A stretch of DNA of 64,000 nucleotides, taken from the NCBI GenBank assembly GCA_964016885.1, contig OZ024743.1:55676001-55740000 (forward strand), read 5' to 3'. The notes below the pieces were generated by a model. The model saw only the letters and a program-made list of their open reading frames with translations. It ran no database searches and was not told the DNA's origin. Shown here piece after piece: positions 48,577 to 60,428 of this stretch. The DNA is from Eledone cirrhosa (Eukaryota). The stretch's first letter is position 1; each line of letters starts with the position of its first letter. The translations under genes and the position numbers were made by a program.

Positions 48577-49523
48577 TTTTTAGAATGTTTTACATATTTT
48601 TACTGTTCCATTATTGGATTGTACTTGTAATTTCCTAACTAGCTTCTCAAGATTTGTATTGAGGCAGTTACTAACATACCCCAGTGCCCCAATAATCACA
48701 GGCATAAATCTGAAGGTGTAATCAGAGTGGAGTATCTGCAGATTTCTCATCAGTTCTGCATAAATATTCTCCTTTTCGCTAATCTTTGATATTATATTGG
48801 CATCTGCTGGGCAGCTAATTTCCACTACTGTGCATGCTTTCTTCTCCCAGCCCCATATCATAATATCTGGTCTGTTATGCCTGCATTTTATTGGGGTTTT
48901 TACTGGAACATTCCACCAGTACTCTTTCATATTATGTACACAGATGTCTTCTACATTGCTGTAGCTTTTAATGTGTTTATTATCGGGGCTATCTTTTTTA
49001 CGAACTGCATTGTACATTGTTTTGGCCACTACATCATGCCTCATAGGTAGATAGTACCGCGATGACATCTTTGGACAGCTGCTGATGACATGGGTGATAT
49101 GCTCGACGTTGGTTCTGCAGAGTCTGCACTTGTTATCACAGGTGTTTTGCCTGCATCCCTATCTCTTTTGTGAATCAGGTATTTCGTGTTAATCTCCTGT
49201 TCTTGGATTGCAAAAGCGTATCCTTCAAAGTGGGAACCAATATAGCGGTTGTTGATCCAAGATAGACTACTTTCCTTATCTATATTACTCTTACTCTGGG
49301 GCTTCCTGGCAACATATCCATGCATGATTTTTTGCTGATAAGCAGGCAGTTTTTCGTCCATGGATTCACTGCGATACTGCTGAGCGACTTCCCTGGGTGT
49401 GAGTTTTTGATTATTACACAGGGAATATTTCTGGAGGAGTTCCTTCCCAACTCTTATGATCTTATCTGTTTCATGCAGATAGACTTGCTCGAGAATCGGG
49501 CTCCTACGTTTCGAGGTTCGTAG
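48577..49523 (-). pseudogene. 5'-truncated, frameshifted RLE-type non-LTR retrotransposon ORF (R4/NeSL-like): CCHC finger plus restriction-like endonuclease
   Basis: EGYAFAIQEQEINTKY, then a frameshift, then CRLCRTNVEHITHVISSC (CCHC), RHDVVAK, HNRPDIMIW..K..CTVVEISCP and K..IY..L (PD-(D/E)xK nuclease), and PVIIGALG. Confidence 0.88.
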
Positions 49524-51733: not shown

Positions 51734-52789
51734 TTAGTTAGTTATACTATTTATGGTTATGTAAATACAAAACCTTATGCAGTTATAAGTATTTTACACA
51801 CACCCTAAATAGTGGTAGGCAGTAATGTATTACTACCTTATTACCAGTAAGTTAAGTAGCTCAATGTAAAAATATCAGATGATTTACAGAGCAGTTATAT
51901 TCTTTAATTTAGAATCCTCGCTCATCATCTATAATTTCCATTTGTGGCACCTTACGATGGGTTAATCCACCATAATAATATGATCACCTTCAGCATAACT
52001 TAATTAAACTACTCTATAGTTAATACACTTTGTGCTTTAAAAATTTCTCTTGGAGGATGCGCATCACCATAGAAATTAGGGTCTATATTGGGACACATTT
52101 TAATAGCTAGGTATAGAAACCCCAGAGTTACCTCCCCGCATGCATTAACTCCCCTTAGCCACACACACACTTCCGGGCGGTATTCAATGGCGTTTCTCGA
52201 AACGTAACAGCCTCCTGTATTGAACTAAAGAACACCAGACTACGATCTCTAATTGGATTGTCGTGGATTATGTGAAGGGCATATAATCGAAAAATACACT
52301 CCCCTGACCATGAAAATGCCGAAGTACATGAAATACTTGACTTCCCTGCGCTGTGCATCTCCAATACTTTTAACACTTTTAATGCTTGCACTATTTTTAA
52401 TGCTTATAATATTTCTCCACACACAGACTATATCAATCATATAAAGAATTTGCCACCAGATCTACCAACCTAACACTCTTGTTTACCTACCTAAGTGCCT
52501 CTACCACACATATCTCTCTGCCACACTATATAAACAAGACGCACATGCGTGCCACACATATAACATTTCCACTATATAACCGCTTATCTTCATGTTGTAT
52601 TTTAACCTGTATTTTTGATTTTTGATTGTACCTCTTAATATAAATGTAATCTCGAAGTGTGTACTGCCACTCTAAATTCTGCAATGAATGTTGACCCACA
52701 ATGTTTGAATATGTATCAATGTTTGAATATGTATCGGTATGTCTCTCGGCTGAAAAGGAGGTCATATAACTGTCCATGCATTAATAAAT

Positions 52790-52836
52790 TGCTCCGAAGA
52801 ATCCAAACCTCGGTTTGGAGGAAACAGCTGTAAGCA
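52790..52836 (+). ncRNA. Minimal type I hammerhead, core CCGAAGA (U4C), palindromic stem III
   Basis: Stem I TGCT/AGCA; stem II TCCAAAC/GTTTGGA; GAAA; ACAGCTGT palindrome; GUA site after 52832; ~40 nt upstream of a (TA)n tract. Confidence 0.7.
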
Positions 52837-52867
52837 CAATAATGTTTTGAACAGTTCTTTGATTCTT

Positions 52868-52972: not shown

Positions 52973-53038
52973 TATTTTATTATACATATTTCAGAGGTAC
53001 TGAGCTATTTCAACAGTACGTCCTCATCAGATAAAATA
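52973..53038 (-). ncRNA. Type I hammerhead ribozyme (mirror copy in the left arm of family B)
   Basis: Reverse complement of 53139-53204. Confidence 0.8.
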
Positions 53039-53138
53039 AGTTAATGCCTGACATACCTTGACTATGTTGGTTAGAATTCAGTCATGCCATGACTGAAATA
53101 TAATCATCAACATAGTCAAGGTATGTCAGGCATCAACT

Positions 53139-53204
53139 TATTTTATCTGATGAGGACGTACTGTTGAAATAGCTCAGTACCTCTGAAATATGTATAATAA
53201 AATA
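53139..53204 (+). ncRNA. Type I hammerhead ribozyme, canonical CUGAUGA core
   Basis: Stem I TATTTTAT/ATAAAATA; stem II GGA-C-GTACTG/CAGTAC-C-TCT; GAAA; 2-bp stem III with AUGU loop; AUA site after 53196. Confidence 0.82.
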
Positions 53205-55449: not shown

Positions 55450-55496
<47 letters not shown>

Positions 55497-55540
55497 TAAA
55501 AGCGAAGTAGTTTCAGATGTTCAAGTCCTTTAATAATAAT

Positions 55541-55614
55541 GCTGTGATATATATTTCAATGACGACACTGGCCACACTGTTCTGTGTGCGAGTGTCGTGA
55601 CATCATCAGACAGC
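55541..55614 (-). ncRNA. Type I hammerhead ribozyme (inverted arm of family C)
   Basis: Reverse complement of 55907-55980. Confidence 0.75.
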
Positions 55615-55906
55615 TTGTTACATAATAAGGTTGTTTCCGAGGCAATCCAAATTGAATCGACATGGGAACGGACGAAGTTCGTGCTTTTGGGTTTTTCATC
55701 CGTTCCCTTGTGAGTACCAATTCACCCCCACCGGTCTGCGCAAGCGCATGTCCGAAGGAAGTTGACCATTAGCACCGCAGATTTCAACGAAATTGGTGAA
55801 TTGGTACTCACAAGGGAACGGATGAAAAACCCAAAAGCACGAACTTCGTCCGTTCCCATGTCGATTCAATTTGGATTGCCTCGGAAACAACCTTATTATG
55901 TAACAA

Positions 55907-55980
55907 GCTGTCTGATGATGTCACGACACTCGCACACAGAACAGTGTGGCCAGTGTCGTCATTGAAATATATATCACAGC
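55907..55980 (+). ncRNA. Type I hammerhead ribozyme (first direct repeat of family C)
   Basis: Stem I GCTGT/ACAGC; CTGATGA; long stem II ACGACACT/AGTGTCGT with inner CACAC/GTGTG; GAAA; palindromic AUAU loop III; AUC site after 55975. Confidence 0.8.
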
Positions 55981-57195
55981 ATTATTATTAAAGGACTTGA
56001 ACATCTGAAACTACTTCGCTTTTACTTATTCGATATTTACTCCGTCACTCCTATGTGGAAAAAGTACGTTGAGTGCTTGAATTGAATTGCATCAATATTT
56101 ACCCTAATAATTAAGCTCCGATTAGTTGAGCGCTCTATGATGTAACCGATATGGTGGAGAAGAGAGGAACCAACCAAGAGCTACCCCGGAAATCCCCTCT
56201 ACCATGGGGATGAAAAACCCCTGACACTGGACGGGCGTAATAGTATCTTTCGGCAGGATAAATACGCGGAAACAAAAAATAAGATAAACCCCTATTTCCT
56301 GCACCAAATCGCTTCTGAACAGAGGCCCCCTCAATTCAATCTATACATGGACAGATGGACAATCGTATGGTTCGTTTTACACATATGTACTCTGTGTTTT
56401 TGCATTTATTCACTATTGTCTCTGTTCTTTTCTTTTCTTTTGTGTTCTCTTTTGTGTACTTTTTGTCTGTTTTTCTTTGACTCTGTTCCATGTGATGGAA
56501 AGTATGACCGTGTAACGGATTGACTAATGCCTTGAACCATGTGGTTTGCCCTCCGTTATAAGGTCCGGCACTGTCGTTCAATATCTGTAACACTAGAATC
56601 CCTCCCAGAACATATTACTTAAACATCTCTCTCCATATTATTTACTCACTTCAATGTATATCTTTACTTAATCCGAATTATCACTTGAAAATTTTTGAAT
56701 TTAGAATTTTTGAATTCTTTATTGTTTAATTTATAATCTCTGATATTTGATTTAGGATTTTAACCTTTAATTTTAATTTTAATTTTTATTCCCAACTCTC
56801 ACTCTTAACTTACTATGTAAAACCATAGTACCTAGAATTAAGTTTATTTTACCTTATGAGTTGATGGTCAGTCTTACTGTCAACGCTTAGTGAAAGGTAG
56901 TATTATGACCTATAAAAACTAACACCCTCCCATCCCCTCTGGCTTTCGGCTGACTGCCACAGTAGCGATGGTAGCAGTAAGCTTTGGCAAGGCATAGGTG
57001 GGCCACTGACAGCGAATTTCGTTGAAATCTGCGGTGCTAATGGTCAACTTCCTTCGGACATAAGCTTGCGCAGACCGGTGGGGGTGAATTGGTACTCACA
57101 AGGGAACGGATGAAAAACCCAAAAGCACGAACTTCGTCCGTTCCCATGTCGATTCAATTTGGATTGCCTCGGAAACAACCTTATTATGTAACAAC

Positions 57196-57267
57196 CTGTC
57201 TGATGATGTCACGACACTCGCACACAGAACAGTGTGGCCAGTGTCGTCATTGAAATATATATCACAG
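57196..57267 (+). ncRNA. Type I hammerhead ribozyme (second direct repeat of family C)
   Basis: Same motif with stem I CTGT/ACAG; AUC site after 57263. Confidence 0.78.
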
Positions 57268-57393
57268 CATTATTATTAAAGGACTTGAACATCTGAAACT
57301 ACTTCGCTTTTACTTATTCGATATTTACTCCGTCACTCCTATGTGGAAAAAGTACGTTGTGTGCTTGAATTGAATTGCATCAATGTTAACCCT

Positions 57394-57438
<45 letters not shown>

Positions 57439-57752: not shown

Positions 57753-57788
57753 TCTTCTAATGAAGGAGTAATGTCCGAAACGTAAAGA
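57753..57788 (+). ncRNA. Degenerate minimal hammerhead (CUAAUGA, G5A)
   Basis: TCTT-CTAATGA-AGGA-GTAATG-TCC-GAAACGTA|AAGA; stem I TCTT/AAGA. Confidence 0.55.
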
Positions 57789-58075
57789 CTTTTCGCCAAG
57801 ATATCAAGCTTAGATTAATATATTTCTTTATTGTACTGTTGTTTGGGGAGTTTTGTGCCAAGCTGTTAGGTGCGTCCGTTGGTTGTTTCAGATGACGAGG
57901 CGTTTTCGCTAGGTCATCAACAGCAGATGAATAGGCGATTGCGGGAAAGTCTTTAACAACATAGCTCCAAACGCCAGCTCCTTAATTTAGAGGTGGTAAG
58001 ATGTTGTCAACGATCTCTTAACTCAAGGGTCAGTGACTAGAGCACTCAGCCAATATCATTTATTTCATACTCTAG

Positions 58076-58110
58076 CTTCTGATGAAGGATTAACGTCCGA
58101 AATTTTAAGA
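58076..58110 (+). ncRNA. Degenerate minimal hammerhead, paralogue of 57753
   Basis: CTT-CTGATGA-AGGA-TTAACG-TCC-GAAA-TTTTAAGA; both copies are followed by ATATCAAGC. Confidence 0.5.
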
Positions 58111-59106: not shown

Positions 59107-59984
59107 AGGTTTGATGGTCTTTATTCTCTCGTTCACGATTTCACCGAACTTAAATTCATAGAAATCTGGGACTTGTCTCCTTCTTCCTCACTTTCTGTTG
59201 CCTCACCATTTTGTTTGTTTACCCTCGCGTCCCCTTTATTTACGTGTCCCAACGACTTTTTTTAGCCGTTGCTCGCACCAACCGGAGGTATATAGTCTTT
59301 AAAGCGATGAAATGCCTATGATAGTTGGAAGATCACTGATGAAGGACAAACTTTTTTCATATGTAACCCATTTGCAACTCCGCAGCGCCCTTATTATCAT
59401 ATTTACACATATTTTTTCCTCTGCTGCTACACCGTCTTTTTCGTTCTATGTATCTTTACCCTTTCTAGCAGTCTCTCTCTCTCTGTTAGCCTCTTCCTCA
59501 CCTCACCCTTCACTCACTCATTCTCTGTCACTACCTCTCCTCCTCCTCTTCTTTCTTCCCGTTTGACCTGTGAGTAACTCTTTTCTCTCACATTCTCGGC
59601 CTAGCTGGTCGGAATTTTTTTTCTCTCTCGTCTACGATTTCACAGAACTTATGTTTACCGAATTCGCAGACCAGACCCCTTCTTCCCCCCGTTAGACCTG
59701 TGCGAAATTCCTTCCTTGCTCACATTTCAACCAGGTTTGATGGTCTTTATTCTCTCGTTCACGATTTCACCGAACTTAAATTCATAGAAATCTGGGACTT
59801 GTCTCCTTCTTCCTCACTTTCTGTTGCCTCACCATTTTGTTTGTTTACCCTCGCGTCCCCTTTATTTACGTGTCCCAACGACTTTTTTTAGCCGTTGCTC
59901 GCACCAACCGGAGGTATATGGTCTTTAAAGCGATGAAATGCCTATGATAGTTGGAAGATCACTGATGAAGGACAAAATTTTTTC

Positions 59985-59988
<4 letters not shown>
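59107..59988 (+). mobile_element. Tandem non-coding element, family F (626-nt monomer, 256-bp terminal redundancy)
   Basis: 59107-59362 = 59733-59988; TA-rich flanks; contains TA-TGAT..ATCA-CTGATGAAGGAC. Confidence 0.8.
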
Positions 59989-60017
<29 letters not shown>

Positions 60018-60099
60018 AAGAAAAAGAGATGAAATCGAAAATGCAACTGAAGTCTTATTTTTTATTTTTTTTTTTTTAAATATATATATTTATTTGGTT

Positions 60100-60137
60100 C
60101 CTTTACCGGTTTCGCAGTTCTTCTGCTTTTCAAAAGG
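60100..60137 (-). ncRNA. Minimal hammerhead with U3-A8 core (left arm of family D)
   Basis: CCTT-TTGAAAA-GCAG-AAGAA-CTGC-GAAA-CCGG-TA|AAGG. Confidence 0.75.
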
Positions 60138-60215
60138 TGAGTTGAGATGGAGGGTCTGTGGTTTTTCTCACATCTGAGAAGTGAGAAAAACCACAGACCC
60201 TCCATCTCAACTCAG

Positions 60216-60251
60216 CTTTTGAAAAGCAGAAGAACTGCGAAACCGGTAAAG
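60216..60251 (+). ncRNA. Minimal hammerhead with U3-A8 core (right arm of family D)
   Basis: CTT-TTGAAAA-GCAG/CTGC-GAAA-CCGG-TA|AAG; site after 60248. Confidence 0.72.
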
Positions 60252-60428
60252 GAACCAAATAAATATATATATTTAAAAAAAAAAAAAAATTAAAAAAAAT
60301 AAGACTTCAGTTGCATTTTCGATTTCATCTCTTTTTCTTTATACTTTCACTCGTGTAGGACACCTCGGTTATTTTTCATTTTGTAAAAAAAACCTCACTT
60401 TCTAATATATATATATATTTTTAGCCGA

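Follow-up and report, generated by a model that had tools for sequence, protein, structure and literature searches.

A young two-armed insertion of a non-coding, hammerhead-bearing 1288-nt repeat in Eledone cirrhosa, likely mobilised by Hydra-clade Penelope-like elements

In silico analysis of a 64,000-nucleotide stretch of the Eledone cirrhosa genome (assembly GCA_964016885.1, contig OZ024743.1, positions 55,676,001 to 55,740,000 of the forward strand; hereafter the window) revealed a young, two-armed Penelope-type insertion of a non-coding, hammerhead-bearing 1288-nt repeat into a TA microsatellite. To judge from its sequence signals, the repeat is likely moved in trans by the reverse transcriptase (RT)/endonuclease of Hydra-clade Penelope-like elements (PLEs), while the form of its RNA template is a separate matter. 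A short, protein-free, young, high-copy family that keeps only cis signals is a clean substrate for asking how PLEs produce tandem, inverted, one-side-tailed insertions and what role their hammerheads play, and for testing the circular-template model. In the literature searched, neither this family nor the hairpin pair reported below is described, and an octopus repeat annotation (PMC13282606) does not mention ribozymes in its accessible parts.

Results

The insertion lies between two (TA)n target remnants, at positions 55453 to 55494 on the left (21 copies according to TRF and evident in the sequence) and 57398 to 57438 on the right (TRF). Taking positions 56112 to 57399 as the unit, its layout is (TA)n, an inverted arm (unit positions 904 to 1206), a direct piece (972 to 1288), one full unit and (TA)n, i.e., 1.25 units head to tail. 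The inverted arm (55492 to 55794, minus strand, 303 nt) reaches 68 nt deeper into the internal region than the direct repeat, matches the 5′ direct piece perfectly along 235 nt and stops at the short 3′ site, 2 nt before the usual position 1208. Repeat comparison shows that it is followed by a 5′-truncated upstream unit (55795 to 56111, plus strand; unit 972 to 1288), which constitutes the pseudo-LTR, and by the full non-coding unit (56112 to 57399, plus strand), which holds no ORF remnant and finishes at the long 3′ site. The direct repeats at 55795 to 56111 and 57083 to 57399 are 317 bp each, offset by 1288 and separated by 971 bp, and they differ at 4 of 317 positions (55907/57195, 56072/57360, 56097/57385 and 56100/57388), in agreement with the initial annotation, which had noted few differences and about 970 bp in between. 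The left edge of the 317-bp repeat is the inversion junction, whose position varies from copy to copy; the repeat is therefore not a defined LTR.

Elsewhere in the window, positions 1 to 37858 are occupied by a 53-bp satellite of about 670 copies with a strong G/T skew that terminates in a (TGT)n tract. A fragment on the minus strand at 48580 to 49158 resembles what we take to be the zinc-knuckle/endonuclease end of a non-LTR retrotransposon ORF. At positions 59107 to 59991, direct repeats of 259 bp, spaced by 626 nt, lie inside TA repeats, with a CUGAUGA core close to their end; this is probably another Penelope-type element. Further hammerhead-like remnants were seen at 52740 to 52840, 57757 to 57790, 58079 to 58105 and 60010 to 60300, the last being an inverted pair that matches the 3′ end of the PLE family in L071/L072.

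The locus contains three hammerhead motifs of type I, with CUGAUGA cores that begin at 55912 and 57200 on the plus strand and at 55609 on the minus strand. On the basis of core and fold, the 5′ hammerhead spans 55907 to 55980 (plus strand; stem I of 5 bp) with a predicted cut after 55975. The 3′ hammerhead spans 57195 to 57268 (plus strand; predicted cut after 57263), and its stem I has 4 bp, with a private G>C at 57195 that occurs in 1 of 126 aligned segments. The third, likewise recognised by core and fold, lies antisense within the inverted arm (55541 to 55614, minus strand). The two co-oriented sites are spaced by exactly 1288 nt, so this part of the initial annotation, including the antisense third ribozyme, was confirmed. 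Cleavage at both would release a monomer of 1288 nt (55976 to 57263, plus strand). Across the 3.0-Gb genome, the exact hammerhead pattern is found 1,790 times and its reversed control not once, which indicates that the hammerheads are not due to chance. An Rfam search at the gathering threshold gave no match anywhere in the window. As in EN+ PLEs, the hammerhead is located within the pseudo-LTR.

Stem II opens at its base with U-U, G-U and U-A, followed by a C-C mismatch. The closing U-U, previously flagged as atypical, is real and fixed in the lineage (85/86, 29/29 and 32/33 in three subfamilies), and related families have A-U, G-U or G-C at this position. The C-C at position 4 is common to all related families compared, despite otherwise unrelated stems, and is a candidate for a tertiary contact. 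Stem III is the palindrome AUAUAUAU, of which relatives carry a wobble-compatible G variant (together AUAURUAU). Its sequence could pair as a dimer, as suggested beforehand, and is consistent with the dimer cleavage described for PLE hammerheads (PMC4209133; work cited in the review PMC6765202). The active monomer fold is predicted to lie above the best fold by 6.0 kcal/mol in the 5′ copy and 8.8 kcal/mol in the 3′ copy. If a transcript began left of 55492, the 5′ ribozyme would be trapped in a perfect 235-bp hairpin, and the 3′ copy carries private changes in stem I and in the first of the two hairpins described below. The core, stem I and the palindromic stem III are nevertheless retained across subfamilies about 30% apart, in a sample partly selected by that very pattern.

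The internal 911 nt gave 1,339 first-look candidates genome-wide, and the 40 that were scored matched at 88 to 100%, which indicates that the region is a repeat and not captured unique DNA, a concern raised at the outset. The 3′ 313 nt gave 2,529 first-look candidates. The repeat composition of the genome is octopus-like, and among named proteins the closest homologue of a local transposon protein comes from an octopod. The locus itself is ordinary, one among many hundreds. Its unit differs from the young majority by 10 substitutions and two indel blocks, from which a young insertion follows, as the initial annotation had proposed. The family has at least four age classes, and older subfamilies at about 82%, 77% and 70% retain the ~1.3-kb unit and the same ends. 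A divergent "sister" (L134), considered as a separate element, is in fact this unit's oldest subfamily. RNA editing was rejected as the source of variants (A>G 2.4 and T>C 3.6 per 1,000), site 1274 changes without consistent direction, and four contig runs of one study contain many variants of the repeat.

Two full units stand in tandem at L010/L018. A ten-unit inverted-plus-tandem array at L123-L124 (G000:C1:130.88-130.89 Mb) is a nascent satellite, expanded through later duplications of monomers and dimers: its units R2 and R4 differ at 2 of 1,313 positions, and the original units are about 6 to 7% apart. Considered as evidence of rolling-circle copying, the array was rejected because these later duplications account for it. 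At L125, L224 and L225 the arms of a single insertion are 6 to 13% apart, with many differences of the subfamily type, suggesting either that one event drew on two different RNA templates or that an old end later received another insertion. In 15 of the 67 loci (L004, L008, L024, L040, L091, L093, L097, L101, L104, L116, L125, L128, L214, L219 and L220), an ATT run just 3′ of stem I (unit 1155 to 1161) has received a short SINE-like repeat. These insertions are independent, since their duplication lengths differ; at L091 the insert is found in both arms, truncated differently.

Insertion ends were compared at 67 non-redundant loci, chosen as best matches or by ribozyme pattern; 15 of them had been picked for a full 3′ match and were bound to show one long end. 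The 16 one-ended and 4 three-ended loci were excluded from the pairing count, leaving 47 that are cleanly two-armed. Of these, 45 combine a long with a short end and 2 are long at both ends, whereas no insertion is short at both; random pairing would leave about half mixed. All 68 long ends fall at unit positions 1283 to 1288, blurred by 2 to 4 nt of AT microhomology, and 62 of them border the TA repeat. Short ends fall at 1208 in 45 of 54 cases, the "1216" class being counted as 1208 plus TA repeat. These fixed 3′ ends lie 56 and ~132 nt past the predicted cut, and the one-sided tail measures ~76 to 80 nt. In contrast, the internal 5′ ends (n = 126) are widely spread and do not cluster at the cut site. 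The unit start is reached at 28 of the 67 loci, and inversion joints mostly show 0 to 6 nt of overlap or short fillers.

The pairing of one long with one short end matches the two internal start sites and the extension of both strands reported for a PLE in vitro (PMC11167929). It was also seen in an active comparison PLE of the same genome with ~900 codons (5 of 6 two-armed loci, the sixth continuing into the next unit) and in a Hydra family (L299, L345, L346 and L338; L303 is ambiguous). Loci L282-L293 (e.g., G000:C4:233387300-233397200) represent a very young autonomous PLE with a ~900-codon frame and many near-identical copies, which forms inverted two-arm insertions in (TA)n with a tail of ~43 nt.

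Several related hammerhead groups in the genome have stem III and the motif after the short end in common with the repeat. One of them carries a Hydra-clade ORF (L334, 742 aa) with RWR, DKT and CxCx5C-type motifs, found in 75, 75 and 73, respectively, of the 81 homologues aligned. The Hydra clade favours (TA)n and has been defined by RWK, DKT and CxCx5C motifs (PMC8557442, section 11). A full-length copy of the family (L338) has a ribozyme at each end, 4142 nt apart, and a frame broken near its start.

Two hairpin motifs link the repeat to this Hydra family. Hairpin 1 (ACUC...GAGU, whose ends can pair) begins 7 nt after the short end in both, and at our locus it lies at 56039 to 56077 (plus strand), past the short-end site 56031. 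A terminal copy at 57327 to 57365 (plus strand) carries a private A>T at 57360 in GAG. Hairpin 2, with the compensated pair GCUC...GAGC, starts 7 nt past the long end in both families and is followed by an ATG. It exists only at the unit junction (56115 to 56133, plus strand, past the long-end site 56107) and matches the 5′ UTR of Hydra-clade elements. The 7-nt spacing of hairpin 2 was seen at 33 junctions of the repeat lineage and 4 Hydra 5′ ends, offsets that are fixed by the search pattern, and the motif also precedes the ATG in two further Hydra families. In the unit, the ATG at 56151 to 56153 (plus strand) stands where the Hydra ORF begins; it opens a frame of 53 to 55 codons in older subfamilies that is frameshifted at this locus and in the youngest subfamily.

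Unit positions 1 to 49 align to the Hydra family 5′ UTR up to the ATG. For the window copy, 1 shuffle in 500 attained this score, and for a sister subfamily none in 500 did. The value of 45 compares to 32 to 38 at six loci from other PLE families, but base composition lets AT-rich windows inside the unit do equally well against the Hydra element (up to 55 versus 45). Longer 5′ alignments to Hydra were mixed, their scores being reached by 0 to 180 of 300 shuffles. Stem III AUAURUAU together with the stem II C-C occurs in 84 of 86 copies of the repeat and 48 of 49 of Hydra. Both the (TA)n target and short cis signals are thus shared with an ORF-bearing family, the cis signals being a criterion of our own and not a published one. 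A unit profile had no significant match to loci holding ORF-bearing PLEs, so the exact partner family was not found among them, and the unit body did not match the Hydra families, similarity being confined to the short motifs. Taken together, these signals make the Hydra clade the likely mover of the repeat.

As other candidate partners, 50 loci from a Pfam GIY-YIG search and 37 of the active ~900-codon family were set aside, being alike in anatomy but not in ribozyme or hairpin motifs. A match at L060 turned out to be an older copy of the repeat family adjoining an unrelated PLE. A multiple alignment spanning several families shifted onto the repeated motif and was therefore not informative. 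For a related hammerhead group (stem I UUUAU, same stem III), the genome holds 29,934 exact matches; at least two of its subfamilies have Hydra-type endonuclease ORFs 1.7 to 2.4 kb upstream, and an inverted pair at window positions 53000 to 53177 is a member of this group. Searching the genome with a Hydra endonuclease yielded 74,691 first-look candidates.

Discussion

We propose that the enzyme would dock on the two hairpins of the RNA and cut both strands of (TA)n, so that one cDNA would be primed from each target strand, one per start site. The two variably truncated cDNAs would then be joined back to back, often via a few bases of microhomology. The template would be uncut or re-ligated RNA, since any copy of more than about 135 nt extends through the ribozyme site. 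With priming no further than 56 and ~132 nt beyond the cut, a linear monomer that had been cut could not have yielded the copies seen. Hairpin 2 falls outside the end of the element itself and is present at this locus only at 56115; arms longer than a unit would hence require a 1288-nt circle closed by re-ligation or a multimer made by read-through. A linear transcript of this locus primed at 56115 would copy at most the 317-nt piece, while a ligated monomer would give arms of full or more than unit length. We regard the modelled hairpin-2 geometry as a real argument for a circle, though not as proof, and, between the two templates, we give the multimer about an even chance and the circle a somewhat smaller one.

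A circular template was proposed in 2014, in a model that gives arms of full or more than unit length (PMC4209133). In such a scheme, our repeat might be a SINE-like parasite that has long lived on Hydra-clade elements and transposes by way of the 1288-nt circle: cut and ligation would place both docking hairpins just past the joint, and a dimeric RT would prime one strand per hairpin and roll round the circle. We hold this scheme only tentatively, as possible rather than probable; if true, it would explain tails, inverted arms and tandems of more than one unit together. The initial annotation had predicted a 1288-nt monomer or circular RNA. The monomer stands as the product expected if both sites are cut, but the circle does not qualify as highly self-paired, since its minimum free energy of -294 compares to -287 ± 8 in 25 shuffles (z = -0.9; 58% paired). 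Divergence within tandem and inverted pairs did not separate circle from multimer.

The same element might also spread with a largely dispensable ribozyme, which we judge an evenly balanced prospect. Templates would be linear read-through transcripts of tandem loci, the tandems would be renewed by insertion into their own ends, template jumps or unequal crossing-over, our locus would be near a dead end, and the 1288-nt circle would be rare or absent. In the accessible accounts of other systems, ribozyme mutants of a lizard PLE insert normally in vitro and no RNA reads began at the cut site (PMC11167929), cleavage was found in only 1 of 9 frog dimers (bioRxiv 10.64898/2026.07.22.740005), and PLE ribozymes cut poorly (PMC4209133). 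In our data, the U-U, G-U, U-A base of stem II, as opposed to the A-U/G-C pairs of relatives, the ~6 to 9 kcal/mol cost of the active fold, the growth of the ten-unit array by later duplications and at least three loci with arms from different variants (L125, L224 and L225) argue in the same direction. Furthermore, multi-unit loci could supply linear templates, and hairpin 1 is present in long-ended copies. On the other hand, the ribozyme's core and its stems I and III have persisted as the subfamilies diverged, albeit in the partly pattern-chosen sample, and a purely linear scheme would lose one junction with each long-end priming, so that some renewal step would still be needed.

Improbable, and largely refuted, is the idea that the copies are truncated 3′ ends of an autonomous PLE with an upstream ORF, or hold a decayed ORF, the latter a possibility raised in the initial annotation. 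Hydra elements in this genome do have 1.7-kb 3′ UTRs, and the ATG at the Hydra start position with its short frame in older subfamilies also speaks for such an origin. However, the unit is self-closing, 33 junctions joining its own 3′ end to its own start, and its size is steady at ~1.3 kb through four age classes. No open frame above 204 aa was found among 150 scored of 650 candidate copies of the short frame, and the 55-codon frame did not match longer proteins, which is weak evidence. A Pfam search of the unit gave no match, and profiles of GIY-YIG domains from this genome and of 81 Hydra-type proteins scored it no higher than shuffles. An apparent decayed GIY-YIG at unit 80 to 235 (tblastn E 0.09 to 0.5) disappeared with profile and shuffles. 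The RT plus GIY-YIG ORF of autonomous PLEs (RWK, DKT and CxCx5C for Hydra) is therefore absent from the unit, with no remnant above shuffles, and was found only in the candidate partner L334, so the non-coding middle claimed initially is supported. The unit probably arose by internal deletion of an ORF-bearing Hydra-like element. A plant-type LTR retrozyme with two 317-bp LTRs is very hard to credit and is refuted by the variable repeat lengths, since, despite ribozyme-bearing direct repeats around a non-coding middle, the ribozymes are type I and not the type III that plant elements carry in fixed LTRs with a 4-bp target duplication, the 5′ boundary of the repeat is a freely variable inversion point, both ends lie in (TA)n, and inverted arms are the rule. 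What had been called a complete retrozyme with 317-bp repeats is a Penelope-type partial tandem with an inverted arm, its unit being longer than those of reported animal retrozymes.

The closest known systems, as far as the accessible text of the cited papers goes, are EN+ PLEs (Craig et al. 2021, PMC8557442; Arkhipova et al. 2013, PMC3846280), which have the partial-tandem pseudo-LTR with its hammerhead, an adjacent inverted 5′-truncated copy, a one-sided tail and a microsatellite target. The repeat differs in lacking an ORF, in a tail of ~76 to 80 nt versus 30 to 40 nt and in its 1288-nt unit. Within them, the Hydra clade (PMC8557442, section 11) also has the (TA)n target and the hammerhead. 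The repeat and the Hydra family of this genome share stem III, the stem II C-C, the two equally spaced hairpin motifs and the 5′ UTR up to the ATG, but the repeat has no protein, no detectable similarity in its body, a longer hairpin 1 loop and a stem II closed by U-U. Non-autonomous Chlamys PLEs such as MRC1 of Chlamydomonas (PMC8557442) are likewise non-coding PLE dependents with pseudo-LTRs and head-to-tail insertions and were once taken for LTR elements, but they belong to another clade, mostly without canonical hammerheads, and have extensive 3′-end similarity to their partner. PAc/Poseidon in vitro (Frangieh et al. 2024, PMC11167929) resembles the repeat in its two internal start sites that set the tail, in the extension of both strands and in a binding region extending downstream of the starts; it is autonomous, from a different clade, and does not need its ribozyme for insertion in vitro.

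Metazoan non-LTR retrozymes (Cervera and de la Pena 2020, PMC7229834; Li, Clavereau and Pollet 2026, bioRxiv 10.64898/2026.07.22.740005) are, in the parts accessible, also non-coding, with one type I hammerhead per unit, a head-to-tail arrangement, a GC content of 39% and a proposed dependence on PLEs. Their units measure 170 to 400 nt (2020) or 51 to 972 nt (2026, with a repeat finder that stopped at 1000) versus 1288 nt here, and our repeat further differs in mostly dispersed and truncated copies, a long stem II and a circle that is not predicted to be highly paired. The repeat is thus a new, unusually long example of an already known kind of non-autonomous Penelope-type element that may work like an animal retrozyme but departs from one in size and folding, and, in pointing to Hydra as the clade, the family backs the connection proposed between animal retrozymes and PLEs.
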